A stretch of 64,000 bases of DNA from Thermoplasmata archaeon (lineage in GTDB: Archaea; Thermoplasmatota; DTKX01; VGTL01): assembly GCA_038851035.1 (NCBI GenBank), contig JAWCLH010000003.1, forward strand, positions 47,511 to 111,510, given 5' to 3'. The position numbers were made by a program, and so were the translations under genes. Positions 7,461 to 41,900 of this stretch are shown here, in pieces. The notes under the pieces are model-generated. The model made no database searches and was not told the origin of the DNA. It was given only the letters and a program-made list of their open reading frames with translations. How positions within the stretch are numbered: position 1 is the stretch's first letter; every line of letters begins with the position of its first letter.

Positions 7461-7967
7461 CGAAATTCCTAGCGCTCGCCAATTATTTCTTGCTTTGAGG
7501 ATATCTGGATTCAAAAGTCCGTGCTGAATTCTCTGTAACCACGTGAATTCCCATGGAGACCTTGGGAGACTTTTTGCTAACTGTCTGAGTATATTTCTAG
7601 CTAGGTCGATGTTTTCATCATTAAGTTCTGGAATTTCAATGAAAGATAGAGCTCCAGAGGTGGAAGGATGAATGTCATAGAGGTCTATAACAAGCGGAGG
7701 TTGAGCCGTGATAATGAATCTGAAAACATATGCAAATTTTGGAATGGGGACAATAGCATAGAGTTGTGAGTAGGGTTTTTCTGAGCGTTCTCTTCTAAAG
7801 CTAAGACCCATTTCATTAAGAAGCTTTCTTAGGACAGAAGCTGTTGATTGAGCATTAAATGATATCGCGGATGACCAGTGAAGTATTTCACATTTGGATT
7901 TCTTTTTTCTTTTTTTTACCATTGAAGGCTTCTCTATACGTTCTTGCCTATTGATGGTGGATTTCAT
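7455..7967 (-). CDS. Hypothetical protein encoded in the AT-rich island (basic KKRKKKSK N-region)
   Basis: 170-aa ORF with codon usage matching the neighbouring AT-rich cdc6 gene; no family recognised. Confidence 0.35.
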   Translation of the reverse strand: MKSTINRQERIEKPSMVKKRKKKSKCEILHWSSAISFNAQSTASVLRKLLNEMGLSFRRERSEKPYSQLYAIVPIPKFAYVFRFIITAQPPLVIDLYDIHPSTSGALSFIEIPELNDENIDLARNILRQLAKSLPRSPWEFTWLQRIQHGLLNPDILKARNNWRALGISL

Positions 7968-8030
7968 GATTTGAATAATGAGTCGTATTTAAATGAACTT
8001 TTGGGTGGTTCAAAAGAGAAGGGCAGAGGG

Positions 8031-8053
8031 ACCCCTTCATTTCCTGTGGAAAT
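8031..8053 (-). promoter_or_regulatory. ORB-like origin recognition box (dyad TTCCACAGGAAAT + GAA + GGGGT, read on the minus strand)
   Basis: accccttcatttcctgtggaaat; its reverse complement TTCCACAGGAAATGAAGGGGT matches the archaeal ORB architecture (TTCC-N5-GGAA dyad followed by a G-string). It lies 180 nt upstream of cdc6. Confidence 0.45.
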
Positions 8054-8236
8054 CTAAAGAAACTTGATTGATTAGTTTTAAGATAGGAGATTCTAACGAT
8101 TTTGTAAAGAATTGTTATTATCGTCTACATGAAAACAATTTCTTGTTACAAACAGAAAAGTATTTGAAAATGGTATCCATTCCGCTTATCCCACAATAAA
8201 GAAAGGGGAGGAAGAAGGCTAGGAGGAGAAACCCAA

Positions 8237-9517
8237 ATGAGAGATGGAGAGACTGGAAAGGAAAACATAATGGATGACCACGTTACGGTCTTTGATCTCT
8301 ATCTTGATGAGAATATTCGCCCAATATTTAAAAAAGATAGATACGTTCTAAGACCTGAGTACGTACCAAATCGTCTTCCTCATAGAGATAGAGAAATTGA
8401 TCAGCTCGCTTCAATTCTCGTTACAGCTCTTAAAGGTGGCAGACCATCGAACGTTCTTATTTATGGGAAAACTGGCACAGGAAAAACTGCAGTCATAAAA
8501 TTTATTCAAAAAGAGATAGAAAAAAAAGCTTATTCACAGCTCCAGCAAATTCATTGTACTTATATAAATTGTCAGATAGTTGATACGGAATATGGCATTT
8601 TGGCTAATATAGGAAATATGTTTATTAAGGACTGGGATGAGAGAATTCCATTCACAGGATGGCCAACTGAGAAAGTTTATAATCATCTAAGAGAAAAAAT
8701 AGATAATGCCAGAGGCATTATATTAATAGTATTGGATGAAATAGATAAACTTATATTTAAGAGCGGAGATGATGTTTTATATCATCTAACTACTTTAAAT
8801 GAAGATTTAAAAAATTCAAAAATGAGTATTATAGGAATATCTAACGAATCTAAATTCACAGAATTCTTAGACCCTCGGGTCCAAACAAGATTAGGTGAAG
8901 AACGCCTTGTCTTTCCTCCATATAACGCCCATGAACTTTTTGATATACTAAAGCAGAGAGCACAATTAGCATTTGAAGATGGTGCAGTCGATGATTCTGT
9001 TATTTCTCTATGCGCAGCTCTCGCTGCTCAAGAACACGGAGATGCAAGAAGGGCACTTGATTTTCTCAGAGTAGCTGGAGAGCTTGCAGAAAGAGAGAGG
9101 TGTTCTAAAGTTACTGAAAGGCATGTATGGAAGGCAAAAGACAAAATCGAGCTTGATGTACAAATGGAACTCATAAGAACACTTCCAACTCAATCGAAGC
9201 TTCTCCTTTATGGAATAATCCTAAAATCTGAAGAGAGCATAACAATTCAAACAACTGGAGAAGTATACGATATATACAGAGAATTATGTTATAGGGCAAA
9301 TATTCAGCCTGTCAGCCAAAGAAGAATTACGGATCTCATTTCTGAGCTAGATATGCTTGGATTAATTAGCGCTCGAGTTCGTTCCTTCGGCAGGGGAGGA
9401 AGAACAAGAGAGATAACTTTGAGTGTGAATGTTCCAGATACAAAAAGAGTACTATATGAAGACGAAATAATTCGAGAGATAATGGATTTCACTTCTTCAC
9501 AACAGAAAATTATTTAG
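8237..9517 (+). CDS. cdc6: Orc1/Cdc6 replication initiator (AAA+ with C-terminal winged helix)
   Basis: Walker A GKTGTGKT, Walker B ILIVLDEID, sensor motifs, C-terminal wH; strong GGAGG SD 8 nt upstream. The gene is conspicuously AT-rich compared with its flanks. Confidence 0.9.
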   Translation: MRDGETGKENIMDDHVTVFDLYLDENIRPIFKKDRYVLRPEYVPNRLPHRDREIDQLASILVTALKGGRPSNVLIYGKTGTGKTAVIKFIQKEIEKKAYSQLQQIHCTYINCQIVDTEYGILANIGNMFIKDWDERIPFTGWPTEKVYNHLREKIDNARGIILIVLDEIDKLIFKSGDDVLYHLTTLNEDLKNSKMSIIGISNESKFTEFLDPRVQTRLGEERLVFPPYNAHELFDILKQRAQLAFEDGAVDDSVISLCAALAAQEHGDARRALDFLRVAGELAERERCSKVTERHVWKAKDKIELDVQMELIRTLPTQSKLLLYGIILKSEESITIQTTGEVYDIYRELCYRANIQPVSQRRITDLISELDMLGLISARVRSFGRGGRTREITLSVNVPDTKRVLYEDEIIREIMDFTSSQQKII

Positions 9518-10506
9518 TATTTCTTTTTTAGTTTTGCTCGTAGATCTTTTCTTTTTGTTTTTCTTTTTTTCAAAATTGAAATAATAAAATCAATACTGAT
9601 AGGAATAACTACAAGAATAACAATTGTTATAATTAATCCTCTAACACTAGTTTCTGGAAAAGTCTCAGAGCGATGACCCGTGACCCAAAGTTTGAAAAGA
9701 CCGAACCAAGGCAGTTCTCCTTCTGCTCTACCCACAATCCATTCGAGTTTAACAGGAGCTACTAAAGCTCCGTTCACTCTTAAAGATTCTTGGTCAACTT
9801 TTTGAATATTATGGTCTCCCTTTGTAAGAAAACCACTGTCTTGTTTTTGCGAAAAAATAACATTAAACGATATCGTCAAATCCTCTTTTCTATATCCTTG
9901 ATTTTTTATAGTATAAAATTTAACATTATACACATTAATATCTGGTATATCTCCTCTGATATCGTGAGTAGTCATGCATGAAGCGGTTCTATTGTACTCA
10001 ACCCATGCGATCGCGCGATGAATAACTGGAGTATCAGAGAGTCCGTTTTTTTTATATACTATCACATGACCGAAGTCTCCATAAGTCATAACACCATACT
10101 TAGGTGAAGTTCTACATGTGGCTTCTACATAAGTCACAATATCGTGTCGATTATTGATTTTTTTAACAAGAGTGAGATCCCCGGTATCAATAACGCCTAT
10201 TTGACTGTCATTTCCATGCATCATACTGCTGGATTCTATAACTACCATTGGCGGCCACACACCAGAATACATAAATAAAATGCCTAAAACAGAAAAGACT
10301 ATAATCGCAGATACAATGATATCCCTGACTAAACCATAAAAATATTCTTTATAACGAGATTTAGATTTCTTTTCTATCGTTTTATCTTCATTTAAATTAA
10401 ATAATTTTCTACGTCTTTTCTTGACGCTTTTATCATTTAATTTAGGATTAGAGCAGTGTTTAAGAAAATCATTAGATCCCCTCTTCATGCCTGCCCACTC
10501 CGCCAT
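9514..10506 (-). CDS. Signal peptidase I, archaeal/eukaryal Sec11-type (S26), with a large extra domain and a C-terminal TM
   Basis: N-terminal TM followed by VVIESSSMMHG (SGSMEP-like catalytic Ser box) and GVIDTGDLTLVKK (GDL box); 330 aa; AT-rich codon usage like cdc6. Confidence 0.6.
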   Translation of the reverse strand: MAEWAGMKRGSNDFLKHCSNPKLNDKSVKKRRRKLFNLNEDKTIEKKSKSRYKEYFYGLVRDIIVSAIIVFSVLGILFMYSGVWPPMVVIESSSMMHGNDSQIGVIDTGDLTLVKKINNRHDIVTYVEATCRTSPKYGVMTYGDFGHVIVYKKNGLSDTPVIHRAIAWVEYNRTASCMTTHDIRGDIPDINVYNVKFYTIKNQGYRKEDLTISFNVIFSQKQDSGFLTKGDHNIQKVDQESLRVNGALVAPVKLEWIVGRAEGELPWFGLFKLWVTGHRSETFPETSVRGLIITIVILVVIPISIDFIISILKKRKTKRKDLRAKLKKKY

Positions 10507-10633
10507 TCCTTCTGGACTGTTTTTTTCATCATAGACAGAGACGAGTAAGGAGGATGTTCAATATATATATCTTGGCAAAATATCAAATAAAAAAGGAGTT
10601 TTTACCCATAAGTACCTACTTATAATTTTCAAA

Positions 10634-10654
10634 TTCCATAGGAAATAAAGGGGT
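10634..10654 (+). promoter_or_regulatory. ORB-like origin recognition box (TTCCATAGGAAAT + AAA + GGGGT), inverted relative to the ORB at 8031-8053
   Basis: ttccataggaaataaaggggt in the AT-rich spacer that follows an A/T-rich DUE-like stretch at 10560-10620. Confidence 0.45.
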
Positions 10655-10771
10655 AGGAGGACTTAAAAATAGAAAAACTATTTATAATACTTTAGCTAAA
10701 ATAAGCCAAAAACTATTCTTGACCAAAAATATTATTAAGCAATACTACCATCTTGGCTTTGGTGAGAATGG

Positions 10772-11074
10772 ATGGAGCTAGAGATTGACGCTCCCGTCGT
10801 CCTTGACACCCTCCGTAACCTTTATAAAGGGGCTATTCGGGGGTCGAGAGTTCTTGACGACATTATCCGCGCCCATAAGATAACATATGAGGAGGCGGTT
10901 GAAGTTCTTCATTTTCTATTGAAAAACCAATTAATTCTCAACATAGAAAAAAATAGAATCAATGGGGACGCAGTGTACAAACTAACAAGAAGAGGAGAGG
11001 TAGTCATTGAAGAAAGACTTTCTAGCCTCTACCACTCTAACCCCAAGGCCGGGGGTGTGGGGGGAGTGATATGA
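10772..11074 (+). CDS. Small winged-helix DNA-binding protein
   Basis: 100 aa with a wHTH-like core (ITYEEAVEVLHFLLKNQLI...YKLTRRGE); GC-rich codon usage resumes here. Confidence 0.45.
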   Translation: MELEIDAPVVLDTLRNLYKGAIRGSRVLDDIIRAHKITYEEAVEVLHFLLKNQLILNIEKNRINGDAVYKLTRRGEVVIEERLSSLYHSNPKAGGVGGVI

Positions 11075-11638: not shown

Positions 11639-14600
11639 TTGGCGGAGATAAAAGGCTCCCGGGAGAGTAGCGCGAGAGATGCAATAGTCGAGGAGATGGA
11701 GCGGAGGCTATCGATTGGGAGGCCCACGCGCTTGGGAGAGGTTTCTAGGTCAGTGCTCGAGGCCATCGTCACTGTCTCGATAATCCCCGCCATTGCGATT
11801 ATCTGTGCGAAGTTGCCGATGCTCCAGGATCTCTGGTATGGCCATTTTGAGATATTCAACACGATGCTTCTGGTGCTCCTGCTCGCCGTGGCGGGAGCCG
11901 GTGCGTTTGTATTGCTATCCAACACGAAGCAGCTCTCGAGCAAGTGGTGGACAAGGTCGCTGGCGCTCGCCGCGGGCGGGGGATTGATAATCGGTCTCTC
12001 CCTACTACCTTCCGCCGGGTTCACCTATTTAAATGCTGTGCCATGGTGGGCACCGGCGATCCTGCTCATCGGCGCGGCCGTGGTCTGGGTGGCGAACTCT
12101 CTCATCAAAGAGAGGCTGGGCTTCTACAGCATCTGGTTCACGGGCCTTATTTTCCTGACCATAGTACCTCTTGAGGAGGCCCTCCTCAAGGGAGTCAGCG
12201 GAACCTACAGGTATGGCTCTTACGAGGGCGCTAGAATGAATATCATATTGGTGGGGCTGATATTTCTCTTCTTCGGGGTGCTTCTGTACGTTCGCGAGCG
12301 AAGGATGATCAAGAGGATAGATACCGAGCTAGCAAGAGGAGACGAGCTTGCCAAAGCGGGGAGGTATGACGAGGCCCTAAAGAGCTACGACAGGGCGATT
12401 CGGGCAGCCCACCTCCTCGCTCCGCCCTCCCATGTCGGGGAGGGCAAGAAAGCGCCCGTCGATGGCTACGAGACCCCCTGGCACGCCAAGGGGTTCGCAT
12501 TCATGAAGATGGGCCGCTACAGCGAAGCTGTCCCCTATCTCGACCTCGCGCTCGACGCCAACCCCGAGAACGAGGCGGTATGGATAAACCGTGGGAACGC
12601 CCTCTCCCGCCTTAAGCAGTTCGATAGCGCGATTCAAAGCTACACCGTGGCCCTGAAGCTCAACCCGAAGAGCGAGGCTGCATACAACAATCTAGGCTGG
12701 GCGCTCTATGCAAAGGATGATGTGGAGGGAGCTATCCGATGCTACGATGCCGCCATCGCCCTGAAGCCAGACTACTCGCAGGCGCTCTACAACAAGGGTT
12801 TGGCTCTCCTCAGGGCAAACAGGCTCGATGAGGCCGTATCAACTCTTGACAAGGCTCTCGCGGTCAAGGAGGCCCCGCTCAGCCCAGCCCAGCAGCTCGC
12901 TGCTAAACACGCCAAGGGCAACGCCCTCTACAGAATGCAGAAGCTGCCCGAGGCTGTCCAGGTCTTCGATGAGGTGCTGAGCCAGGTCCCGGACGTGTCC
13001 GTTTTTCTTCTCAAGGGCAACGCCCTGATGCTCCAGAGGAAATATTCCGAGGCCCTCACCCAGTACGAGAACGCCCTCCGCTATGACCCACGGAACGGCA
13101 GCGCCTGGAACAACCGTGGTAACGCCCTGTTGAACATGGACAAAAAGGAGGAGGCGATATACTGCTTCGACCAGGCAATAAAATTCGACCCCCAGAACGC
13201 AGAGCCTTGGAATAATAAGGGCATCGCGCTGAGCCGGCTGAACCGTCTTCCGGAAGCGCTGAAGTGCTTTGAAAAGGCTCTGGAACTCGACCCCCGGCAC
13301 CTTGATGCGATGTTGAACAAGGGCAATACCCTCTCGAAGCTTGGAAAGCACACCGAGGCCATAAAGTGCTTCGACCAGCTCCTCGCCCACGACCCAAACA
13401 ACGTGATAGCCCTGAATAACAAAGCCAACGCCTTGGCGCGCATGGGCAAGACTGAAGAGGCCCTCCAGGCTTACGACAGGGCGACAGCGCTCGCGCCGAA
13501 CTTCGAGCTCGCGCAGGTGAACAAGGGGAACACATTGATGGCCGTCGAGCGCTATGAGGAGGCCAAGAGGTGCTTCGAAAAGGCCCTGGAACTAAATCCG
13601 AAGAACGCCCACGCATGGTTCAGTCGTGGGAGCATACTGCAGAAGCTCAAAGCGTCTCCAGAAGAGGCTCTGAAAAACATAGACGCAGCCCTATCCCTCG
13701 ACCCGAAACATGTAGAAGCTTGGAACACCAGGGGCGATATACTACTTGAGGCGAAGAGGTTCGATGAGGCGATTCAGTGCTACGATACCGTCCTGAAGCT
13801 CCAGCCGGACAACGTCTCGGCCTGGTACCACAGGGGCAGTGCCCTCTCGCAGAAGGGGAACCACGCAGAGGCCATAGCCGCCCTTGACAAAGCCACCGAT
13901 CTGGACGAGGACTACATCGATGCCTGGAACCTAAAGGGGCATATCTGGCACACGCTGGGCGAGATGGAGAAGGCAATATTCAACTTCGACAAGGTTACCG
14001 AGCTAGACCCGGGACACGTCGAGGCCTGGGACAACAAGGGCGTTGCGTACTACTCAATGGGCAGAATTCACGACGCTATCAAGTGCTTCGAGAAGTGTGT
14101 GGCCATAGATCCCAGGTACGAGAAGGGCTGGTACAATATGGCTTCGGCCTACAGCTCGCAGGGCAAAGTCGAGGAGGCCCTGAAGTGCTATGAAAAGGCG
14201 ATTGAAATCAAGCCGGACTATGGGAAAGCCTGGAACAACATGGGCAACCTTCTTTATTCTATAGACAGGCTTGACGAGGCCCTCCGGTGCTTCGATCGCG
14301 CTCTCACCATCGACTCAACCTACGAGAAGGCCTGGAATAACAAAGGCAACATCCTGCTCACAAAAGGGCAGACGGAGGAGGCTCTGGCCTGCTTCAACCG
14401 CGCCCTAGAGCTCGACCCGAAGTACGTGAAGGCGTGGAACAACAAGGGGAGCGCCCTATTCAATTTGGGGAGAGTAGAGGAGTCGTTGGAGTGCTTTAGA
14501 GAGGCCTTGAAGCTGAAAAAGGACTACGACAAGGCTTGGTACAACGCCGGCGCGGCGCTGCACAAGATGGGCAAGTCGGAGGAGGCCATAGCCTGCTTCG

Positions 14601-17443
14601 ACAAGGCGATAGAGCTGAGGCCGAAGTACGACGAGGCATGGTACAACAAAGGCGCCGCCCTCTTCAAGCTCGGCCGGGTGAAGGAGGCGGTAGAGTGCTT
14701 TGAAGAAACGCTCAAGCTCAACCCTAGATTTGACGAGGCCTGGTACAATCTAGGCAATGCGAAGTACTATCTGGGCAGCACCCTGGAGGCCCTGAAGGCG
14801 CTCGACCGGGCGCTCGAGATAAACCCCGAGTATCAGGAAGCCATCCGAATTCGGACCGAGTGCCTCGAGACTTTGGAGAAGGCAGGAAGGATGTACGAGT
14901 ACTGGAGGGAGAAGGGCAACATTCTCGCGGAGGCGGGAAAGGACACGGAGGCCCTCACCTGTTACAACAAGGCTCTGGACCTAAAGAAGGACGACGACAG
15001 GACCTGGTTCTTCAAGGGGAAGCTGCAGGCTAAAATGGGGAGGCACGAGCAGGCCGTGCAGTCATTTGACAAGGTGCTGGCGATAAAACCTGACGACAGA
15101 GAGGCCTGGTACGGGAAGGCGGAGTCTCTGGTGGCCTCGGGAAGGGTGGCGGAGGCGATCATTTGCTACGACAAAGTGATCGAGCTCGACCCCCAGAACG
15201 AGCAGGCCTGGCTGAACAAAGGAATGGCGCTCATCAAGCTGGGCCGAATAGAAGACGGGATGCAGTGCTTCCAAAAGATGATCGAGCTCACGCCCGAGGA
15301 CCACCTGGGCTGGCACTACATGGGCCTCGGCCTTGCTGCGACGGGCAGAAAGGCAGACGCAGTCACCTACTTTTCCAGAGCGCTAGATCTGAACCCCAGC
15401 GCGCTCGACACGTGGTTCCAGAAGGGCCTAGCGCTCCGGGACCTAGGAAAAACTGACGAAGCGATCGCGGCTCTGAACAAGGTCGTTGAGCTGAAGCCTG
15501 AGCATTCCGAGGGCTGGACCGCTCTCGGCGAGCTGTTGATGAAAGCGGAGAAGTGGGAGGGTGCGAGCAAAGCCTTCGAGAAGGCGATCACTGCAAACGA
15601 GATGAACCCGCGGGCCTGGTTCGGAAAGGGAATGGTCCAGCTCAATCACGGCAACGCGCAGGCCGCTAGTGAGGCTCTTCAGAGGGCGCTAGAGCTGAAG
15701 CCGGACTTCGGCGAGGCCTGGAGCGGCATGGGGATGGCATACCTAAAGAGCGGGAACGCGGGGTCGGCGCTGGAGTGCTTCGAGAAGGCGGTGAAGCTTG
15801 CGCCGGGCTACGCGGAGGGCTGGTCCGGCTACGGCAGCGCGCTCTTTGCGCTAGGCCGCCTGGACGAGGCTATCAAGGCCTTTGACACCGCCATATCCAT
15901 CAACCCGAACTTCGAGAAGGCCTGGGCCAACAAGGCGACGGCATTGGTCAAAGCCGGCAAGGCTCCGATGGCTTTAATAGCACTTGACAAGGCGACTGAG
16001 ATAAAGCCGGATTATGAGAAGGCCTGGGCGGACAAGGGCAATGTGCTCCTTTCTCTGGGAAGAACGGAGGACGCCTTGGCGGCCTTCAACCGGGCGCTGA
16101 CGCTCAACCCCCGCAGCGACAAGACCTGGCTAGCGGTCGGTCAGGCCCTCCAGACTATGGGCAAGCACAAGGAGGCGGTGGCGGCCCTCGATAAGGCTAT
16201 AGGAATCAAGCCGGAGAGCGAACGAGCGTGGCTCGAGAAGGGGAACGCCCTCCAGGCGATGGGGAACCACGACGCTGCCATTCAGGCCTACAATCGAGCG
16301 CTGGAGCTGAAGCCTGACAACGCAAAGGCTTGGCTGGGGCGGGGCCTTGCCTACGCCGACCTTACGGAGTACGGGGACGCGCTCAAGAGCCTCGAGAAGG
16401 CCCTCGAGCTGAAGCCTGAGGACGACAGGGTCTGGATGGAGAGAGGAAAAGTTCTGATGGCGATGGAGCGGTATGATGAGGCCGCGACGAGCCTTGCGAA
16501 GGCAATAGAGCTGAACAGAGCAAACGCTCAGGCCTGGTTCCTGAGCGCAACGCTGCTGGCGAAGCAGGGAATGGCCGAGGATGCGATCGCCGCGCTCAAT
16601 CAGGCGCTCGAGGCTGACCCCGCCCATGCCGATGCGCTCCTGGAAAAGGCGAAGCTCGCGATGCAGCTCCGTAGGGGAGACGAGGCTCTGAAGGCCCTGT
16701 ACAGGTTCGTGGAGGTGAGGAAGGAGAGCGCCGAGGGCTGGCTTCTTCTGGGCGCAGCGCTCTACGAGAATGGGCAGAGGGAGGAGGCGCTGGGGGCGCT
16801 GGACAGGGTGGTCCAACTAGACACAAGCCATGCCCGCGCTTGGGCGCTACGTGGCAAGATACTACAGGAACTCGAGAGGAGCGAAGAGGCCCTGAAGTCC
16901 TTCGAGAGGGCTGCGGAGCTCGAGCCAGACATGGAGGAGGCATGGCTCGGCATGGCCGACATACAAACTCGGGCTGGAAAGGCTGAGGAGGCGGTCCGGA
17001 CGCTGAAGAAGGCGCTGGACAGGAACCCGAAGAGCGAAAGGGCATGGCTGGCGACCGCGGTGGCACTGAGGAAGCTGGGTCGTGTGAAGGACGCGATGAA
17101 GTGCGTAGAGCGGGTTCTCAAAATAAATCCGCGCAACGAGAGGGCTATAGAAATGAGGGAGCTGCTCGAGAGCGAGGAGGAGGAGGCTGGCGGGGCGGGG
17201 CCCGAGGCAGCTCCCACGGTGCCCGAGCCTGCGCCCACTACAAGCAAGGAGGGCCGCGAGAGGAGCGGCCCCGCGGCCCCAGAGCCATCAGGGCCTGTGG
17301 CTGCGGGGGAGGCCCAAAGGCGTGAGGGAACAGGAGCCTCGTCGCCATCGGCTGGACCTGGAGCCGTTCAGGCCGCCCCCGGCCCGCGCGGGGCCGATGT
17401 GAGAGACGATTTCGAGAGCATCGAGACTGTGGAGATGGAGTGA
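11639..17443 (+). CDS. Giant membrane-anchored TPR protein (N-terminal ~6 TM helices, ~45 TPR units, Glu/Pro/Ala-rich low-complexity C-tail), 1934 aa
   Basis: N-terminal hydrophobic helices (IIPAIAIICAKL, LLVLLLAVAGAGAFVLL, LIIGLSLLP, ILLIGAAVVWV, IFLTIVPL, IILVGLIFLFFGVLLYV). These are followed by an uninterrupted series of 34-aa W-x2-G-x2-L / A-x3-Y / A-x6-P TPR repeats. Confidence 0.85.
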   Translation: MAEIKGSRESSARDAIVEEMERRLSIGRPTRLGEVSRSVLEAIVTVSIIPAIAIICAKLPMLQDLWYGHFEIFNTMLLVLLLAVAGAGAFVLLSNTKQLSSKWWTRSLALAAGGGLIIGLSLLPSAGFTYLNAVPWWAPAILLIGAAVVWVANSLIKERLGFYSIWFTGLIFLTIVPLEEALLKGVSGTYRYGSYEGARMNIILVGLIFLFFGVLLYVRERRMIKRIDTELARGDELAKAGRYDEALKSYDRAIRAAHLLAPPSHVGEGKKAPVDGYETPWHAKGFAFMKMGRYSEAVPYLDLALDANPENEAVWINRGNALSRLKQFDSAIQSYTVALKLNPKSEAAYNNLGWALYAKDDVEGAIRCYDAAIALKPDYSQALYNKGLALLRANRLDEAVSTLDKALAVKEAPLSPAQQLAAKHAKGNALYRMQKLPEAVQVFDEVLSQVPDVSVFLLKGNALMLQRKYSEALTQYENALRYDPRNGSAWNNRGNALLNMDKKEEAIYCFDQAIKFDPQNAEPWNNKGIALSRLNRLPEALKCFEKALELDPRHLDAMLNKGNTLSKLGKHTEAIKCFDQLLAHDPNNVIALNNKANALARMGKTEEALQAYDRATALAPNFELAQVNKGNTLMAVERYEEAKRCFEKALELNPKNAHAWFSRGSILQKLKASPEEALKNIDAALSLDPKHVEAWNTRGDILLEAKRFDEAIQCYDTVLKLQPDNVSAWYHRGSALSQKGNHAEAIAALDKATDLDEDYIDAWNLKGHIWHTLGEMEKAIFNFDKVTELDPGHVEAWDNKGVAYYSMGRIHDAIKCFEKCVAIDPRYEKGWYNMASAYSSQGKVEEALKCYEKAIEIKPDYGKAWNNMGNLLYSIDRLDEALRCFDRALTIDSTYEKAWNNKGNILLTKGQTEEALACFNRALELDPKYVKAWNNKGSALFNLGRVEESLECFREALKLKKDYDKAWYNAGAALHKMGKSEEAIACFDKAIELRPKYDEAWYNKGAALFKLGRVKEAVECFEETLKLNPRFDEAWYNLGNAKYYLGSTLEALKALDRALEINPEYQEAIRIRTECLETLEKAGRMYEYWREKGNILAEAGKDTEALTCYNKALDLKKDDDRTWFFKGKLQAKMGRHEQAVQSFDKVLAIKPDDREAWYGKAESLVASGRVAEAIICYDKVIELDPQNEQAWLNKGMALIKLGRIEDGMQCFQKMIELTPEDHLGWHYMGLGLAATGRKADAVTYFSRALDLNPSALDTWFQKGLALRDLGKTDEAIAALNKVVELKPEHSEGWTALGELLMKAEKWEGASKAFEKAITANEMNPRAWFGKGMVQLNHGNAQAASEALQRALELKPDFGEAWSGMGMAYLKSGNAGSALECFEKAVKLAPGYAEGWSGYGSALFALGRLDEAIKAFDTAISINPNFEKAWANKATALVKAGKAPMALIALDKATEIKPDYEKAWADKGNVLLSLGRTEDALAAFNRALTLNPRSDKTWLAVGQALQTMGKHKEAVAALDKAIGIKPESERAWLEKGNALQAMGNHDAAIQAYNRALELKPDNAKAWLGRGLAYADLTEYGDALKSLEKALELKPEDDRVWMERGKVLMAMERYDEAATSLAKAIELNRANAQAWFLSATLLAKQGMAEDAIAALNQALEADPAHADALLEKAKLAMQLRRGDEALKALYRFVEVRKESAEGWLLLGAALYENGQREEALGALDRVVQLDTSHARAWALRGKILQELERSEEALKSFERAAELEPDMEEAWLGMADIQTRAGKAEEAVRTLKKALDRNPKSERAWLATAVALRKLGRVKDAMKCVERVLKINPRNERAIEMRELLESEEEEAGGAGPEAAPTVPEPAPTTSKEGRERSGPAAPEPSGPVAAGEAQRREGTGASSPSAGPGAVQAAPGPRGADVRDDFESIETVEME

Positions 17444-17570: not shown

Positions 17571-20500
17571 GTGAGAGGGAGACTAGTAAGGTGGTGGACA
17601 CTCGGGCTCATGCCAGTTCTGCAGGCCCAGCCCCCGGACTTTGATGGAGAGGAGCCGCCGCCCCAGAGAAGGGAGCAACCTCCTCCGGAGGGACATGACG
17701 ATTTCGAGGAGGTGCCGCCCCCTCCCCCCGGCGGGCCGGCTGAGAAGGCAACCTCTCCCCCATCTGGACCGGTACCGGCGCCCGCGGGGCCTGCAGAATT
17801 CGAGGAGGCTCCACCGCCGGCCCCCGGCCAGTCCGGAGCCCCAGCCCCGGAGAGTCCTGAAGAGTTACCGCCCTCTCCTCCTCCGCCCCAGCCGGCCGCG
17901 CCCGGGGAACCTGTGGAGTTCGAGGAAGCGCCTTCACGTCCCCCAGCGCCCGAAGCGTCCATGGAGTTCACGGAGGCTCCGGGTCCCGGTCCCTCGAGAG
18001 AAGCTCCACCACCCGAGGAGTTCGAGGAGGCCCCGGCCCCCGGACCTCCCGAGCAACCCGCAGTCCCTCCGCCGGAAGCTCCCTCCCCGGCAGTCACCCC
18101 CAGGGGCCCCGAGGAGGCTCTACCGGGCGAGCCGGAGGTATTCGAAGTGAAGGCCGAGGAGGCGCCGCCGGTTTCGCTCAGGACCGCCCCGCCGGCCGAG
18201 GCCGAGGCCCCCGAGACCAGACCGGCCGCCCGGAGGAGGGCGGGCATGGTCAATGGCCGGGGGCTCGTCAACGCCCGCGGGAGGGCCAACGGCCTCGTCA
18301 ATGGTCGGGGGCTGGTCAACGCGAGGGGCAGGACAAACGGCCTTGTCAATGGCCGTGGATTGGTCAATGCGCGCGGAGCGACGAACGGCCTCGTCAACGG
18401 CCGCAGGAGGGGGCTGGTCAACGGCGCGAGCCTCGTCAACGGCCGGAGGCGGAGGGGTCTGGTAAACGGTGGCGGCCTGATAAACGGTGAGGGTGTTATC
18501 AACGGCCGGGGGCTGGTCAACGGCAAGGGCCTGATAAACGGCCGCGGTCTGACCAACGGAAGGCAGCTCGTTGCGGCGGAGACCGTGCCCAGCCGCCCCA
18601 GGCCGCGGAAGAGGCTGATGATGGCCGCTCTCGCGGTCGCCATCGCCCTCCTGATAATCATCCCGATATTTTATATAGTGCAGGTGGAGAAGGGCATAGC
18701 GATAGACGGCATCTTCGCCGACTGGAGCGGCGTGAGCAACAAGTACAACGACGGCGGCGCCTCGCCCGTGCCATCGACGGACAACAATGTCGACATCGAC
18801 ATGTTCGGAGCGAGCGCGAGCGATACCGACCTATCCTTCTATCTGAAGGTCGCGGGACAGGTGCTGAAGGGCGCGGGCAACGGGGTTGATACACTTACTA
18901 TTTTCATAGACAAAGACCACGACGGTAACGGCTATCTGGTCAATAGCCCCGGAGGGGTCATCCACGCTGACCTGAAGCTCGAGGTCTTCGGCTGGGACGG
19001 ACTCGTCAAGTCCGCCTCATATTCGAAATTCGAGGGAGCCAACCCGAACGACTACTCCGGCTGGAAGAGCCTCGGGGCGGCGAGGGCAGCGGTCTCCGGG
19101 AGCGAGCTCGAGGCGCAGGTCTGGTTCAGGGATACGGGTATGTCCCGGAACTCCGAGGTCAGCATCCTGTTCTACCTGCGCGACTCGAACGGCGAGGAGG
19201 ACTACTCCGACTTTACGATAGGAATGAGCACCGGCGTCCTTAGCGTCAGGCAGAGGGAGCCGAGCCTTGGGGGTGGAGGAGGGAGCCTTGTTCTCGACCT
19301 GACCGCGCACGCCCGTACAATCAATGTGACATCGATAACGGTCACGCGTTTCGGGAGCGGGGGAGGGGGGATGCTCCAGCTCAGCGGGCCCGGAGGGCTT
19401 GAGAGGACGGCCTCATTCGCGGGCACGGGGAGCCTGACAGGCTTCGTCCTGACGGTCGAGAGAGACCGGACGGTCTCGGTCACGCTCTACGCGAGCGGTA
19501 TGAGCGGCGTATTTGGAATGGGCCTGGCATCGCCCACGGCGGTCACGGCCAGCACGAACGGCCGCACCGTCCACGTGTCGGTCTCGGGCTACTCAACGGC
19601 GCTCGTCAATCTCGCCGGTGGTGTGCCCGGAGGAATTATCATAGACGGGGCCTTCGAGGACTGGGACGCCACCCGCGGGAGCGCCGGGTACCGCTCCCGG
19701 CTGGACAGGAGCGACGATGTACAGCAGTCCGGGAGGGTCGGGACGCCGGGGCTCATTGACAGGGGCGGGCTGGCCTATTACCCAAACGACAACATCAACC
19801 TGCAGGAGGTGGCCGAGTACGACTCCGGAGGCGGGCCCCTCTATTTCTATGCCAGAGTCGCCGGGAAGGCGATGGCGGGCCAGCCGGTTCCGGCGACGAG
19901 GCGCGGGACGCCGGGGCCCTCCGGACCTCCATCTCCACCGAAGGAGCTGAAGCTCGTGGGCTCGGACGCTTTTTACGTTCTGATAGATGACGATGGCAAC
20001 AAAAACACCGGCTACCCGCTCTACACGGAGGACGGGGACCTCCTGATCGGAGCGAGGTACTGCGCCGTGGCGATAGGGAAGAACGGAGTGGTGCTAGAGG
20101 TCAGGACCTTCGTGTACGACGGCGGCTGGCGCGAGGGGGGCTTCTCAGCCACCGCGGCCTCGGGGGGGAAGAGGATAGAGCTCTCCGCGTCGGGCATCGC
20201 GGCCCTCGTGGCCCACAGGACCATCATAATAGCGGAGGACTGGACCTGCAACGCCGACCGGAGCGACGCGCCGCTCGTCGGCGCCGGGAGGAGCGGGGGA
20301 GAGCCGACGCTCATAGTCAACGAGGTGGATATTGCGAAGCACGTGATAAGAATCGGCTCCTCGAACAACCCGCTCTTCAGAATCGAGCTGGAGGCGCTCA
20401 ACGGAGAGGTCGAGGTCAGCGGAATCGAGCTCCAGAGGGACGGAACCGCCCCGGATGAGGATATCTGCCTCGTTCGCCTGATGCAGGACGCCGACGGCGA

Positions 20501-21314
20501 CTGGGAGCTGACGGTGGGAGACCGGGAGCTCGCGGCGACGGTATTTGTCAATGGAAGCGCTAACTTCACCCTCGCGCCGCCCGTCGTCGTCAGGCCGGGG
20601 GAGATTGTGGTCCTAATCGTGGCGATTGACGTTAGGGAGGGGGCGGGGGAGTATGGTAGATTTGGGGCGGGGATAAAGAGGGTGGAGAGCAGCGGAGTCG
20701 AAGTGGATACTATTATCGAGAGCGAGACGAGAGATGTCGTATTTGTCAAAACGAATGGAAGATGGCAATCACTGACAGCATGTGTAATTAATGAGATAAA
20801 AAAGAAAAGTAGTGGTTACGAAGTTGAATGGATTGAAATTCTTAATAAATCAGGAAATAAGATTTCAGATTGGAAAATTTCAGAATCTCTCGGATCATGG
20901 AGCATATCTATTACTTTAGAAAATGGAGAATGTAAATATTATGCAATCGGCGAAGATATTGTATATTGGAAAAAAGATTCTACTTACAATACAATTTATT
21001 TGTATGATAATAATAATAATTTGAAAGATTCAAAAACTCTTTCTGAATTAACAGAAGGTGCCTATTCAATGGCTCGTTATAGAGATGCAGATGAAAATCC
21101 CACGGATGAATGGTATGATGAGAATGAGCCTACACCTGGAAATAAAAATGATTTAATCCCCGAGTTCCAAGATATTATCTATCCACTCGCCGGCCTTATT
21201 GCTGTAATCGTCGTAATCCGCGCCGCAGGCCGGGGGCGCACCGGGGGTATGAGGCGCATGAAGAGTGGAGCGGAGAAGACGATCCGCGCGCGGAGGCGGA
21301 CCAGCGAGCTCTAA
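17571..21314 (+). CDS. Large surface protein: Pro/Glu-rich N-region with EFEEAP repeats, (G)LVNGRG tandem repeats, single TM, extracellular DG-F-DW domains, C-terminal lamin-tail-like module and hydrophobic/Arg-rich anchor (PGF-CTERM-like)
   Basis: Repeats NGLVNGRGLVNARG at 18243-18570; TM LMMAALAVAIALLIIIPIFYI; motif IIIDGAFEDWD appears twice; C-terminal PLAGLIAVIVVIRAAGRGR. It is paralogous to the gene at 35041-37512. Confidence 0.8.
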   Translation: MRGRLVRWWTLGLMPVLQAQPPDFDGEEPPPQRREQPPPEGHDDFEEVPPPPPGGPAEKATSPPSGPVPAPAGPAEFEEAPPPAPGQSGAPAPESPEELPPSPPPPQPAAPGEPVEFEEAPSRPPAPEASMEFTEAPGPGPSREAPPPEEFEEAPAPGPPEQPAVPPPEAPSPAVTPRGPEEALPGEPEVFEVKAEEAPPVSLRTAPPAEAEAPETRPAARRRAGMVNGRGLVNARGRANGLVNGRGLVNARGRTNGLVNGRGLVNARGATNGLVNGRRRGLVNGASLVNGRRRRGLVNGGGLINGEGVINGRGLVNGKGLINGRGLTNGRQLVAAETVPSRPRPRKRLMMAALAVAIALLIIIPIFYIVQVEKGIAIDGIFADWSGVSNKYNDGGASPVPSTDNNVDIDMFGASASDTDLSFYLKVAGQVLKGAGNGVDTLTIFIDKDHDGNGYLVNSPGGVIHADLKLEVFGWDGLVKSASYSKFEGANPNDYSGWKSLGAARAAVSGSELEAQVWFRDTGMSRNSEVSILFYLRDSNGEEDYSDFTIGMSTGVLSVRQREPSLGGGGGSLVLDLTAHARTINVTSITVTRFGSGGGGMLQLSGPGGLERTASFAGTGSLTGFVLTVERDRTVSVTLYASGMSGVFGMGLASPTAVTASTNGRTVHVSVSGYSTALVNLAGGVPGGIIIDGAFEDWDATRGSAGYRSRLDRSDDVQQSGRVGTPGLIDRGGLAYYPNDNINLQEVAEYDSGGGPLYFYARVAGKAMAGQPVPATRRGTPGPSGPPSPPKELKLVGSDAFYVLIDDDGNKNTGYPLYTEDGDLLIGARYCAVAIGKNGVVLEVRTFVYDGGWREGGFSATAASGGKRIELSASGIAALVAHRTIIIAEDWTCNADRSDAPLVGAGRSGGEPTLIVNEVDIAKHVIRIGSSNNPLFRIELEALNGEVEVSGIELQRDGTAPDEDICLVRLMQDADGDWELTVGDRELAATVFVNGSANFTLAPPVVVRPGEIVVLIVAIDVREGAGEYGRFGAGIKRVESSGVEVDTIIESETRDVVFVKTNGRWQSLTACVINEIKKKSSGYEVEWIEILNKSGNKISDWKISESLGSWSISITLENGECKYYAIGEDIVYWKKDSTYNTIYLYDNNNNLKDSKTLSELTEGAYSMARYRDADENPTDEWYDENEPTPGNKNDLIPEFQDIIYPLAGLIAVIVVIRAAGRGRTGGMRRMKSGAEKTIRARRRTSEL
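18243..18570 (+). repeat. Coding tandem repeat (18-nt unit, ggcctcgtcaacggccg-like) encoding (G)LVNGRG/LVNARG units
   Basis: About 18 consecutive imperfect copies of ctcgtcaacggccgnggg visible directly in the sequence. Confidence 0.8.
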
Positions 21315-21371
21315 ACCTATCATCCTTTCCCGTTTTCATAGTGGCGCCTCTTCAGCGCCTCCATAAGTGCC

Positions 21372-21755
21372 TCACGGCGCCATCTGCTCCTCAATCCAGA
21401 CGATAACTTCCTTCGCGTCCTCCATGAGGGCCTCAGCCTTTTCCTTTGTGTAGAGCTCATAGGGCGGCTCGCCGGAGGCGTCGGGGTATCTGGACAGCGT
21501 GTAGTGCGGCGTCAGCTCGCGAAGGCGCGTGTCGTGCTCGGGAGGAACGCTGGCGATGTGGCCGAGCCTTATCAGCGAGTGCTTCTCCTCCGGGGGCTCG
21601 AGGTTCTTGTGCATCAGGAGCGCCCGGAGCATCTTCTCGACCGATTGATGGCAGAGCCACGCCACGAGATAGAAGTCGCCGGCGGCGAGGGCCCTCTCGG
21701 CGCTCTCCATCTCTCGCTTCGCCTGCTTCACCCATATCAGGACGCGATCCTTCAC
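21372..21755 (-). CDS. HEPN-domain protein (orphan; no adjacent minimal nucleotidyltransferase)
   Basis: LVAWLCHQSVEKMLRALL...HSLIRL...LTPHYTLSRYPDA matches the HEPN helix/R-x4-6-H-like pattern ending in RYPD. Confidence 0.65.
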   Translation of the reverse strand: MKDRVLIWVKQAKREMESAERALAAGDFYLVAWLCHQSVEKMLRALLMHKNLEPPEEKHSLIRLGHIASVPPEHDTRLRELTPHYTLSRYPDASGEPPYELYTKEKAEALMEDAKEVIVWIEEQMAP

Positions 21756-21968
21756 CGCCCAGACCCGGACTATCTAGATGCTTAGGGGTAAATGAAGTTA
21801 TCTGGGAACAGCCCGGAGCGTCTGGAGGCAAGTCGCTGGAGTAGGAAGCAAGGAGGCAACGGTCTCTATCCATCCGGAATAATCGAAAAGGGGGATGAGT
21901 TGGGAGAAGTTTCGGAGTTCGCCGGAGGCGGTCGATGGAGCCTCCGGCAGCGGTGGCAAAATGGAAAA

Positions 21969-35040: not shown

Positions 35041-37512
35041 ATGGTCGGAGAGAGAGGCGAGGAGAAATTGGGTGATAGGGAGGAAGATGGGCTGGAGGGG
35101 AGAGCCGGAGGAGAAGAGGATGCGACCACTGATGGGTGTCCGGGGGAACAGGAGAGCGTCCTGAGGCCCGTGCCCCCTCCTGAGAGAATTCAGGAGATTG
35201 AGATGGAGGAAGCGGAGGCCGTGGAGGTGGAAGAGGACATTGCAGAGGTCGAGCAGGCGAAGGGTGAGGAGGCCTTTAGGAAGAGCGAGGGGGCGATGGA
35301 GACAGGTGCCGGCTCCCCCGGAACACCCTTGGGTGGGGCTGAAGGACCGGTTGAGATTCCGGGCGACAGGAGGGGTGAGAGGGGCCGGAGCAATGGGCTT
35401 CTGAACAGGAGGGCCCTGACCAACGGTCGGAGCATAGTCAACGGCAACGGCCTAGTCAACGGCGCCAAAACGGGTTTAATAAACGGTGGAAAAAGGGGCG
35501 CAATCAACGGCCGAGGCATCGTCAATGACAAGGGAATCACTAACGGGAGCGATACAGGAGTGGTCGAGGCCCCGCCCCGCAGGCTCACTAAGAAGGGGCC
35601 CTTAGCCGCACTGGCCATCATCGTTGCCTTGGTTCTCATCACCGTCTCATATTACGCCCTCCTCTCGACCGAGAGAGGAGTAAGGGTCGACGGCGGGTTC
35701 TCGGACTGGACCCCCTTCCTCAAGTACCACGACGAGGCCGGCGACCAGCGGAATGCTGACATCGACATCACACAACTCGCGCTGGCCGTGGAGGACTCAT
35801 CGGTCTCGCTCTATGTACGAGTTGGGGGGAGGGTCCTGGCTGGAAGGGACGGCGGTGTGGACATGTTCTGCTTCTTTTTCGACACGGACAGGAACCCAGC
35901 CACGGGATATCCCGCGCCAAGCGTCGGGGCGGAGTATGTTCTCGTCGTGGACGGATACGATGGACGCGTCTCGGCCTGCGGGCTTTACAGGTTCGGGGGG
36001 GCGGGGCGGTCCATTAGCGACTGGAACTCGAGGACCCCCGTCGGTTCCGCAAGAGCGGCCGCCTCCGGGGCCGAACTCGAGGCCCAAGTCGCTCTCTCGG
36101 ACCTCGGGCTCCGACCTGGCTCCGGGCCGAACGTCCAGACCCTAGCGCGGCACAGCGGGGGCGGGGAGGACATCGGGCCGGTCGTCGGGACGGGGCGGGC
36201 CGCGCTTACGGCGGTCTGGGCCCGCGTCGGTCCCGTCTCCGTCCCTCCTGGCAAGGCGGGTGTGCCTCTGCTCAGGGTGGAGCTCAGGGCTCAAGGGGGC
36301 TCCGTGAGGGTCTCATCGCTACGGGTGTCCGTGAACGAGGGAACAGGGGCGCGCGACATCAGCCGGCTCTCGCTGATGACCGCCTCTGGTGCGGAGGTGC
36401 CCGGGGCATCGGCCCCAATTGCAAATGGGTCGGCGCTGCTCGCCCCTGGGAGCCCCTTGGAGCTCAGGCGCGGCGAGTCGATGAACCTCACAGTGGTGGC
36501 CTGGATAGCCTTTGAGGCGGAGAGGGGTCGGGCGGTCGGGCTCTCGCTCGAAGGGCCGCAGAGCATCATCTCCAGCGCGGACACCGTGATGGTGGAGGGC
36601 CGCGGGGGGAATCTGACGCAAATCGGAGAGCAGGCGCAGCCCGGTCGAATCATCATTGATGGAGCGTTTCAGGACTGGGAGGGCATCCCGGGCCACCCAG
36701 ACCCCATCGGCGACGCGACCAACCCTTCCGTGGACCTCAGGGACTTCAGGGTGACCAACGACTCAGCCTCACTCTTTCTCTACGCCGCTGTTGACGGAGA
36801 GATAATGGCGGGCGCGTGGGTGCCGGAGACGAAGCAGAGGCCACAGCCAGGAGGCGGGGGCGGTGGCGGCGTGCCCGCGCCCCTCCCCGAGCTGACGGGA
36901 GAGGACGCCCTCTTTGTGTTCCTCGACATCGATGGTCTCTCTGAGACAGGCTACGCAGGCGAGGGGGCTCCGCCGGGAGCGGATTATCTGGTCAAAATAA
37001 CTGGTCGGGGTGGGAAAATAACATCCCACCTCGTTATGCCCTTCACGGGTGGGGCGGACCGGAGCCAGTGGAGCTGGGGCAGGGGGACGGAGCTCCCCGC
37101 CGCGGCGGGCGGGACCGGAATCGAGCTAGCCGTGGCATTGGAAACCATCGAGAGCCCAGTGGGAGTGGTCTCCCTGTTCTATTACATGACCGGCTGGGGC
37201 CAGAGCCGGGATGCCGGGACGGAAATCGAGTACAGCCTTAGCGGCGGGGGATGGGGGAGGGGAGCCGGCGCCGGCGACCCGCCGGGGGCCGGGCCGGGCC
37301 TTGGGTCGCCAGAGGGTTCGGGCGATGAGCCCCTTCACGCCCCTGAGTTCGGTGAGCTTCTCCTGCCTATAGCAGGAGTCATCGGCATATTCGCAGGAGC
37401 CAGAGGAGCGAGACGGAGGAACGCGCGCGTCCGAAGGGGAGAAAAAAGGAATGATGGAGCGGTGACCGTGGCGTTCTCCGTTGAGGGGGCGTTGAGGGAA
37501 TGGTCTGGCTGA
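35041..37512 (+). CDS. Surface protein, paralog of 17571-21314: acidic N-region, (G)LVNG/INGRG repeats, TM, extracellular DG-F-DW domains, C-terminal hydrophobic + Arg-rich anchor
   Basis: GLLNRRALTNGRSIVNGNGLVNGAKTGLINGGKRGAINGRGIVNDKGITNG; TM LAALAIIVALVLITVSYYALL; RVDGGFSDWTP and IIIDGAFQDWEG; C-terminal LLLPIAGVIGIFAGARGARRRN. Confidence 0.75.
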   Translation: MVGERGEEKLGDREEDGLEGRAGGEEDATTDGCPGEQESVLRPVPPPERIQEIEMEEAEAVEVEEDIAEVEQAKGEEAFRKSEGAMETGAGSPGTPLGGAEGPVEIPGDRRGERGRSNGLLNRRALTNGRSIVNGNGLVNGAKTGLINGGKRGAINGRGIVNDKGITNGSDTGVVEAPPRRLTKKGPLAALAIIVALVLITVSYYALLSTERGVRVDGGFSDWTPFLKYHDEAGDQRNADIDITQLALAVEDSSVSLYVRVGGRVLAGRDGGVDMFCFFFDTDRNPATGYPAPSVGAEYVLVVDGYDGRVSACGLYRFGGAGRSISDWNSRTPVGSARAAASGAELEAQVALSDLGLRPGSGPNVQTLARHSGGGEDIGPVVGTGRAALTAVWARVGPVSVPPGKAGVPLLRVELRAQGGSVRVSSLRVSVNEGTGARDISRLSLMTASGAEVPGASAPIANGSALLAPGSPLELRRGESMNLTVVAWIAFEAERGRAVGLSLEGPQSIISSADTVMVEGRGGNLTQIGEQAQPGRIIIDGAFQDWEGIPGHPDPIGDATNPSVDLRDFRVTNDSASLFLYAAVDGEIMAGAWVPETKQRPQPGGGGGGGVPAPLPELTGEDALFVFLDIDGLSETGYAGEGAPPGADYLVKITGRGGKITSHLVMPFTGGADRSQWSWGRGTELPAAAGGTGIELAVALETIESPVGVVSLFYYMTGWGQSRDAGTEIEYSLSGGGWGRGAGAGDPPGAGPGLGSPEGSGDEPLHAPEFGELLLPIAGVIGIFAGARGARRRNARVRRGEKRNDGAVTVAFSVEGALREWSG

Positions 37513-40772: not shown

Positions 40773-41900
40773 ATGAAGTCAATCGTCCGAGACATGCTCT
40801 CCAGGCCCGCGAGCGAGCGGCCGAGCCTGGCCCCCACCGGCACCCCGCCGCCCCAGCCCGGGCCCGCCGGGGCGGACGACGAGGAGCTGGAGAAGGTGCT
40901 CCAGGGTCTTAAGACCCGGATAAAAATAATCGGTTGCGGGGGCGGGGGCTGCAATACGATAAATAGAATCGTTGAGGCTGGAATTCCGGGGGTGGAGTTA
41001 TTTGCCGCCAACACAGACGCCCAGCACCTTCTGGCGATTCATGCCCCCCGGAAGATTCTCTTGGGAAGGAGGACAACCAGGGGCTTGGGCGCCGGCGCGA
41101 TACCCCATGTCGGCGAGGAGGCGGCGAGGGAGTCGGAGGAGGAGCTCAAAGCGGCCCTGAACGGGGCAGACATATGCTTCATCACCTGCGGCCTGGGCGG
41201 GGGCACAGGCACGGGGTCTGTCTCTGTGGTAGCTAAAATCGCCAAGGATCTGGGGGCACTGACCATCGGCGTCGTCACCCTGCCGTTCAAGGCGGAGGGC
41301 ATCGTGAGGATGGAAAATGCCGAGTGGGGCCTCGAGCAGCTTAGGAGGAACGCCGACACAGTCATAGTGATACCCAACGACAAGCTTCTGGAGCTCGTCC
41401 CCCGGCTCTCGCTCAACGCAGCCTTCAAGGTCGCGGACGAGGTCCTGATGCGCTCGATAATCGGAATATCGGAGATAATCACCAAGCCCGGCCTCGTGAA
41501 TCTGGACTTCAGCGACCTTAAGACGATAATGAAGGGCGGGGGGGTGGCGATGATTGGTCTCGGGGAGGCCTCCGAGGACAACAGGGCCCTCGAGGCGGTG
41601 AACGAGGCCCTCAACTCGCCCCTGCTCGAGGTGGACATATCAGACGCCAACGGGGCCCTAGTAAACGTCACGGGCGGCCCGGACATGACGATAGCCGAGG
41701 CGGGCAGGGTGGTTGAGGAGGTCCACAACCGCATCAATCCCGGAGCCAGAATCATCTGGGGGGCGGCGGTAGACCCCGCGCTCGAGCGCACTTTGAGAGT
41801 GATGATAGTGGTCACAGGAGTGAAGAGCCGGCAGATACTGGGGCCAACCTCCCGGCCGGTCTACTCACAGCTGCACGGAATAGATTTCGTAAGGAGATAG
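40773..41900 (+). CDS. ftsZ: Cell division GTPase FtsZ (paralog B)
   Basis: [35 protein letters not shown]; about 60% identical to the upstream copy. Confidence 0.9.

Follow-up and report, generated by a model that had tools for sequence, protein, structure and literature searches.

A compositionally distinct lamin-tail-domain segment in a Thermoplasmata surface protein: a candidate exchangeable cassette within an ancestral architecture

How does a short AT-rich stretch come to lie, in frame, within an otherwise GC-rich gene? The question is raised by a 64,000-nt stretch of DNA from a Thermoplasmata archaeon (GenBank assembly GCA_038851035.1, contig JAWCLH010000003.1, positions 47,511 to 111,510; hereafter the window), in which the surface-protein gene at 17571-21314 abruptly changes its composition close to the 3' end. 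A first-pass annotation had proposed that this patch represents the recent, exon-like capture of a lamin-tail domain (LTD). Our analysis leads to a different answer. An LTD followed by an IPEF motif, a transmembrane (TM) helix and an Arg-rich tail is the ancestral architecture of this gene family, and the evidence supports homologous replacement of a cassette and not the gain of a new domain. With moderate confidence, we favour the explanation that the ancestral last extracellular LTD module has in this clade become an exchangeable, hypervariable cassette, which is replaced by recombination in its flanks.

The patch itself is sharply delimited. GC content is 0.28-0.35 over approximately 20740-21185 and 0.60-0.76 along most of the gene. 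Counted over fixed segments, GC content at third codon positions (GC3) is 0.805 for 18780-20735, 0.213 for 20736-21185 and 0.786 for 21186-21311. The edges of the low-GC3 cassette were determined by a two-change-point maximum-likelihood scan on GC3, which put the two switches behind codons 1053 (nt 20730) and 1212 (nt 21206), with GC3 values of 0.81, 0.22 and 0.86 across the fitted segments (Fisher p=3e-44). The AT-rich patch described in the first-pass annotation was thereby confirmed, with the EWIEILN core and the quoted peptide in frame. Its proposed start, 20735, lies one base out of frame: from 20736 onwards the patch is read as 150 AT-rich codons without a stop, while the 20735 frame contains 23 stops, and the patch is therefore coding. 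The compositional shift is one of codon choice and not of amino-acid composition alone. Nearly all codons in the cassette are rare in the host (e.g. AAT 14/14, GAT 11/11), and its codon usage matches that of an AT-rich island at 7391-11050 of the window.

The resemblance of the patch to LTD modules was borne out at the level of the family. The window module matches the Pfam family PF00932 with an E-value of 1.7e-4 and 22.4 bits, below the gathering score of 34.3 bits, over model positions 9-104 of 109, and both signature motifs are present (VINEI, aa 1072-1076; EWIEILN, aa 1086-1092). An exhaustive HMMER search with the module over 1.84 billion representatives led to 72 relatives, and eleven C-terminal regions were aligned (alignment A1). 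Invariant in A1 are INE, W.E..N, AR, P, N and PEF (N19, E20, W32, E34 and N37 among them), including A113, R114, P122 and N138 in the stretch that connects the LTD core with the sorting motif. Since ten of the eleven members match the LTD model individually (best E 3.7e-12), the assignment can be made although the window copy is sub-threshold; for P0002 and P0006 (family members are numbered P, loci L) the PF00932 match is precomputed. An AlphaFold2 (AF2) model built from A1 (pLDDT 80) predicts a nine-strand beta-sandwich followed by a helix, and with this model the tail of lamin-B1 provided the top Foldseek matches. A sequence search of the PDB with the family profile gave noise only (E>0.2). 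At the family level it is thus supported that the patch encodes, besides an LTD-type Ig-like domain and the conserved linker behind it, PEF and the greater part of the C-terminal helix. The peptide YDNNNNLKD, taken earlier for an Asn/Asp-rich linker behind the LTD, lies inside the Pfam match, and the real linker is ARYRDADENPTDEWYDENEPTPGNKND.

The membrane anchor, which had also been assigned to the patch, is only partly contained in it: the patch covers PEF and the greater part of the hydrophobic helix, whereas the Arg/Gly-rich tail, with its GC-rich codons, lies outside. This C-terminus is tripartite, consisting of PEF, a hydrophobic helix and a basic cluster, which is the layout of PEF-CTERM proteins. 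The model TIGR03024 (cutoff 23 bits) matched neither the window protein nor its last 57 aa; among the relatives, four of eleven have sub-threshold matches at E<=1 (best E 0.002; P0002 with 14.2 bits, E 0.038). No archaeosortase gene was found among the open reading frames (ORFs) scanned in the 64-kb window. Judged from its sequence, a PEF-CTERM-like sorting signal would be the more fitting description of the anchor, and the mature protein is presumably cleaved at PEF and lipid-anchored, which would leave the LTD beside the membrane.

Is the LTD new at this position? A search with the GC-rich body retrieved two orthologs, P0001 and P0002, with 55-56% identity, both of which carry an LTD at the same site, followed by IPEF[QS]DI..PL.G, a TM helix and a basic tail. 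The LTD together with the IPEF/TM/Arg tail was also found in P0006, P0008, P0010, P0011, P0019, P0022, P0028, P0040 and P0004, and every relative recovered has an LTD there, except for the paralog at 35041-37512 in the window. The latter was correctly recognised before as lacking the patch; it is genuinely paralogous (E 9e-50, 32% identity across 641 aa), and the LTD is missing from it. Because the LTD occupies the same position in orthologs (46-55% flank identity) and in distant subfamilies (22-31%), it has not been newly captured. Members of the 90% clusters (P0075-P0077) added no further cassette variants. Three of the loci, L005, L007 and L009, are positional orthologs, since the downstream FG-GAP gene is conserved in them with 55-59% identity.

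The ortholog P0004 (L016 2001-9380; also L017 and L018) has the same N-terminal repeats and body, followed by 12 tandem LTDs before the PEF tail. All 12 are GC-rich with GC3 of 0.7-1.0; in L016 the module is amplified, not replaced.

The low GC3 of the segment is not restricted to the window either. With approximately the same boundaries it recurs in nine other genes of the ortholog clade (L015, L002, L003, L005, L006, L020, L008, the partial L009 and L012), and it is weakly visible in L007 (Table 1). The left change points lie at most about 10 codons from T[RK]DV...KTGGR. Of the nine other clade genes analysed, six have the right one directly ahead of IPEF, and in L002 and L003 it falls earlier, inside the module. 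This recurrence argues for the low-GC3 tail being a conserved feature and not an insertion, an outcome which the first-pass annotation had itself named as speaking against its proposal; it is seen in the orthologs, though not in the paralog. With an LTD that is ancestral at this position and a low-GC3 tail that recurs in nine orthologs, a recent exon-like capture is not supported.

Table 1. GC3 of the 150 codons upstream of the cassette, the cassette and the tail in the window gene and its relatives
Gene	Remark	Upstream 150 codons	Cassette	Tail
Window		.75	.19	.77
L015	sister MAG	.78	.20	.77
L002		.86	.35	.73
L003		.91	.27	.48
L005		.82	.29	.93
L006		.94	.44	.96
L007		.98	.69	.89
L008		.69	.37	.78
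L009	partial gene		.26	.67
L012	partial gene		.49	.95
L016	12 LTDs, GC-rich	.95	.88	.81
L004	GC-rich LTD	.98	.95	1.0
L011	GC-rich LTD	.96	.82	.71
L021 (P0011)	GC-rich LTD; no marked switch

Evidence for exchange comes from the mosaicism of cassettes and flanks that is observed in the relatives. L020 (JGI 3300060336) and L006 (Ga0233425), which stem from different metagenomes, show no differences over a 405-nt cassette core, compared with 30 differences in the first 90 nt upstream and about 9 in the 85 nt of the tail; the downstream DNA is 86% identical. In a second pair, L006 and L007, the first 127 nt, in the upstream flank, are identical, the two sequences part where the cassette begins, the cassettes are unrelated (34% aa identity) and the tails are 88% identical. 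Cassette identity in general does not follow flank identity: over the 300 aa upstream, identity is 46-55% within the clade and 22-31% towards distant subfamilies, and the corresponding values of the cassette are 24-50% and 24-36%, no higher within the clade. The earlier view of the segment as foreign to the gene is supported insofar as the segment has an evolutionary history separate from that of its flanks, and not supported insofar as it assumes the gain of a new domain.

A closer comparison is possible with the sister metagenome-assembled genome (MAG) GCA_038894075.1 (L015), which was separately assembled and contains the same gene, 96.7% identical at the nucleotide level, with the same junctions. 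Between the two strains, 4 differences in the 450-nt cassette (99.1% identity) stand against 122 in the 3744 nt of the gene (Fisher p=0.001), and synonymous differences are fewer in the cassette. The pattern is consistent with mosaic ancestry, though substitutions are unevenly spread along the gene. In the same comparison, a hyper-divergent tract was noticed at 20466-20570, about 170 nt upstream of the cassette, with 20 differences in about 105 nt (3.3% for the gene overall), which suggests a separate small recombination tract.

According to the explanation favoured here, the patch would be an LTD-type Ig-like beta-sandwich with a conserved linker ending at PEF, whose allele in the window stands out by its composition. 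Through recombination in the flanks, which are conserved and GC-rich, LTD alleles would be swapped between strains or lineages, with the ...SIDVS..A.LY.TFG...T[RK]DV region as the putative left flank and the IPEF.DI..PL.G helix as the right one; breakpoints in the relatives place the right edge of the exchanged tract just past the PEF motif. The cassette would in this way acquire a history separate from the vertically inherited gene body. The window copy would be one such allele, common to the sister strain, and has presumably arrived by such an exchange itself. The variability of the cassette may serve virus evasion or self/non-self recognition.

Several points weigh against this explanation. 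The search for a donor of the window cassette remained without success, as identity to anything other than itself reaches at most 40% among the 1.84 billion representatives; a word-index homolog search with the module alone gave no matches; and a scan of IMG/VR for the cassette detected no relatives, which leaves a viral reservoir without support. Comparison of the patch with the 64-kb window by blastn and tblastn detected no second copy, silent cassette or template of a diversity-generating retroelement (DGR). Because neither a donor nor a second copy was found, exchange is shown in relatives and not for the window allele. The 127-nt identity of L006 and L007 could be a k-mer overlap of one assembly graph. 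Furthermore, the neighbour-joining tree of the cassettes of about 130 aa lacks robustness, and a blurred phylogeny could result from saturation alone; the orthologs are few, and many of them end at contig ends. Finally, according to standard models, imported DNA drifts to the composition of its host over time. An old import at 46-55% flank identity should have done so, and hence exchange among GC-rich hosts alone leaves the AT-richness unexplained; some maintaining force or reservoir is needed.

This domain-delimited low-GC compartment is the unusual part of the case. Candidates for the origin of an AT-rich cassette pool are an unsampled AT-rich reservoir, the loss of GC-biased conversion in deeply diverged alleles, and selection for rare codons. 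As to a reservoir, the Lys/Asn/Ile-rich family member P0043 suggests an AT-rich host and is not established as an AT-rich reservoir. P0011 was considered for this role as well and did not prove to be a reservoir, as its locus L021 shows no switch.

The second candidate can also be phrased as in-situ compositional decay, in which diverged alleles are assumed to escape recombination and GC-biased gene conversion, so that AT-biased mutation lowers their GC content. It is compatible with cassette exchange and concerns the cause of AT-richness only. The low-GC3 zone coincides with the hypervariable zone, and LTDs with close recombination partners are GC-rich, as in the 12 tandem LTDs of L016 (GC3.8-.97) and in L004 and L011, which are 72% identical to each other (GC3.95 and.82); the failure to find an AT-rich donor points in the same direction. 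A simple rule of isolation is, however, hard to reconcile with L009 (GC3.26) and L007 (.69), which possess related cassettes (P0010, which is that of L009 in full, is 56% identical to that of L007), and identical cassettes in different genomes show that the cassette travels. We regard decay as unlikely, though as the best of the alternatives.

Slightly less likely still is selection for rare A/T-ending codons, by which a slow-translation zone of about 150 codons before the sorting signal would aid co-translational folding or membrane handling. Such selection would account for domain-delimited boundaries that recur in orthologs, for a window cassette made up almost entirely of host-rare codons, and for the lower number of synonymous changes that separate the cassettes of the two strains. 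It is weakened by L016, L004, L011 and L021, which have the same architecture and encode their LTDs with host-typical GC-rich codons, and by the variation of AT-richness within the clade (GC3.19 to.69).

That a gene previously devoid of an LTD recently received a foreign LTD "exon" is largely refuted, and we consider it very improbable. The abrupt compositional switch, the paralog without LTD and the codon usage resembling that of the island at 7391-11050 speak for this reading. All recovered orthologs and members of distant subfamilies, however, have the LTD at exactly this position, and the ARYRD...IPEF segment, which is part of the AT-rich patch, aligns with GC-rich versions in relatives. 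The cassette boundaries show no target-site duplication and no inverted repeats of note. Their sole repeat is the exact 11-nt direct repeat GTATTTGTCAA at 20541-20551, within the hyper-divergent tract, and at 20739-20749, at the left edge of the patch; it is probably coincidental, as by a rough estimate about 0.2 such repeats are expected by chance in 1.3 kb. An intein or intron was considered in addition and rejected, since every relative has an LTD with which the segment can be aligned residue by residue.

An even poorer candidate is a DNA or RNA element within the coding sequence (a promoter, a terminator of the convergent HEPN gene or a non-coding RNA) or DGR-type hypermutation. In a GC-rich archaeon, signals resembling promoters or terminators could reside in AT-rich DNA, and the HEPN gene ends close by, at 21372. 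This gene is, however, missing downstream in positional orthologs that have the AT-rich cassette, which also rules out the cassette as its terminator, and Rfam gave no match on 20300-21900. With respect to a DGR, there is neither a copy of the patch resembling a template repeat in the 64-kb window nor a reverse transcriptase among the scanned ORFs, and the two strains differ at only 4 cassette positions, which are not A-specific. An assembly or binning chimera, conceivable for any MAG, can practically be dismissed, since the frame is kept through both junctions, the separately assembled GCA_038894075.1 has the same junctions with single-nucleotide polymorphisms on both sides, the exact protein is recorded on two contigs (including JAWCPG010000001.1 of GCA_038870335.1, "Thermoplasmata archaeon") and analogous switches occur in unrelated metagenomes.

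Table 2. Coordinates of the surface-protein gene, its parts and its paralog in the window
Feature	Coordinates	Strand	Basis and remarks
Whole gene, 1247 aa, Thermoplasmata surface protein	17571..21314	+	ORF list and translation; NCBI MEM2869095.1 / MEM3041983.1 "hypothetical protein"
N-terminal Pro/Glu-rich region, then (G/R)LVNG repeats (18243-18563); presumably cytoplasmic	17571..18563	+	Translation, motif coordinates; shared with paralog and orthologs
First TM helix LMMAALAVAIALLIIIPIFYIV (signal-anchor)	18615..18680	+	Sequence; topology inferred
GC-rich extracellular body with two IDGxFxDW modules (18696-18725, 19635-19664)	18681..20729	+	No Pfam family matched
Low-GC3 cassette	20730..21206	+	Change-point analysis, Fisher test, composition profiles, codon usage
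LTD (PF00932) match, aa 1072-1154; VINEI 20784-20798, EWIEILN 20826-20846	20784..21032	+
Family-conserved ARYRD...PTD.WY...PT.G..N segment, from LTD core to sorting motif	21072..21158	+	AT-rich codons; alignment A1
PEF motif of PEF-CTERM-like sorting signal, aa 1197-1199	21159..21167	+	Invariant P142, E143, F144 in A1
C-terminal hydrophobic helix IIYPLAGLIAVIVVI, aa 1202-1216	21174..21218	+	Sequence; predicted AF2 helix = model residues 144-165
Arg-rich tail, aa 1217-1247, cytoplasmic	21219..21311	+	GC-rich native codons, outside patch
Paralog with same N-terminal repeats, TM and body; PEF-like tail (HAPEFGELLLPIAGVIGIF)	35041..37512	+	Gly-rich linker replaces LTD

The genes around the surface-protein gene (Table 2) were inspected as well. 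Downstream, the convergent HEPN-domain gene (21372-21755, minus strand; E 2e-23) stands alone, with no adjacent MNT partner seen, and it is missing from the orthologous loci L005, L007 and L009. Just upstream, 11639-17443 encodes a protein of 1934 aa with about 42 TPR repeats (TPR_1, 1060 bits), which are preceded by an N-terminal multi-pass hydrophobic region; synteny of this gene extends to the sister MAG. The AT-rich island at 7391-11050 comprises 3.6 kb with a GC content of about 0.35 and a GC3 of about 0.25 within a GC-rich genome. It contains an Orc1/Cdc6 gene (8237-9517; Cdc6_C E 2e-28) and two ORFs on the minus strand without Pfam match (7455-7967 and 9514-10506), and it occurs in the same context in the Logan assembly of SRR27730043. 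A simple repeat finder detected no origin recognition box (ORB)-like repeats in it. An integrated element and an origin region are both conceivable for the island, whose presence shows that the genome contains AT-rich DNA with an origin of its own.

Further along the window, two adjacent paralogs of the FtsZ/tubulin family (39528-40637 and 40773-41900) lie near PAS sensor genes, one of which has a "methanogen output domain 1" (37816-39423). A stretch of lower GC content (57536-62510; GC 0.47-0.52 with patches <0.40) adjoins tRNA-Gly (57536-57610) and tRNA-Pro (57875-57947) and holds an AAA_25/DnaB_C-like ATPase (58995-60098, minus strand) along with ORFs without Pfam match. It may be an integrated element.

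Among known systems, the closest described analogue is VARTIG (VARiable Thermococcales IG, arCOG07710), in which a hypervariable C-terminal Ig domain precedes the sorting signal and its variability was attributed to inter-species recombination (Makarova et al. 2021, PMC8416519). Both are large archaeal surface proteins in which the last Ig-type domain, before the sorting signal, is the most variable one and is shuffled by recombination, and in both the variable domain is expected to stay on the mature protein after cleavage. The family described here is not counted as a member of VARTIG. Pfam detects no domain besides the LTD in the window protein. The family is set apart by its lineage (Thermoplasmata), by its Ig subtype (LTD and not CARDB-like), by its PEF-like sorting signal, and by its downstream genes, as a conserved FG-GAP/Big_9 protein is the neighbour in place of an array of small Ig genes. 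The authors of the VARTIG study found no comparably variable Ig domains outside the Thermococcales, and a sharp low-GC compartment is not mentioned in their paper, where the terms "GC content" and "AT-rich" have 0 occurrences each (PMC8416519).

If the proposed exchange is true, it extends recombination-shuffled C-terminal Ig-type surface domains beyond the Thermococcales. Going further, one could speculate that the low-GC compartment is actively kept across deep divergence and marks VARTIG-like exchange between lineages of Thermoplasmata for self/non-self recognition or virus evasion; AT-richness would then be a consequence or a requirement of exchange, either through old balanced alleles that escape GC-biased conversion or through an AT-rich mobile reservoir. 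This is a tentative idea, which we hold to be doubtful in its full extent. An in-frame cassette of 0.45 kb with sharp compositional edges is an unusually clean natural system, in which it becomes testable what keeps exchanged or balanced alleles AT-rich in GC-rich genomes (a reservoir, biased conversion or codon selection) and what the recognition target of the membrane-proximal LTD is in these uncultured Thermoplasmata. Scans of genomes can use a GC3 change point inside a gene as a flag for exchangeable surface cassettes.

With respect to other systems, the locus does not resemble a DGR, as the search of the 64-kb window and the scan of its ORFs brought to light neither of the hallmarks considered above. 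With prokaryotic LTDs (PF00932) the module shares the INE and E-[WF]-[IV]-E-[IL]-x-N motifs, a predicted beta-sandwich of about 110 aa and the extracellular context; it differs in that the sub-gathering window copy is assigned through family-level matches and predicted fold. The likeness to PEF-CTERM (TIGR03024) concerns PEF, helix and basic cluster at the extreme C-terminus, a motif kept across the family and the paralog, whereas the model matches are confined to sub-threshold ones in relatives and the scanned window ORFs include no archaeosortase. In replacement flexible genomic islands, for example GI1 of Haloquadratum walsbyi, and through intragenic recombination, surface determinants are diversified by homologous recombination; one such event in H. 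walsbyi spans about 250 bp within an S-layer gene (PMC4535781). The replacement of surface determinants through conserved flanks would be common to both cases; the unit in the window differs in its size of about 0.45 kb, corresponding to one in-frame domain, and in a GC content far lower than that of its host gene.

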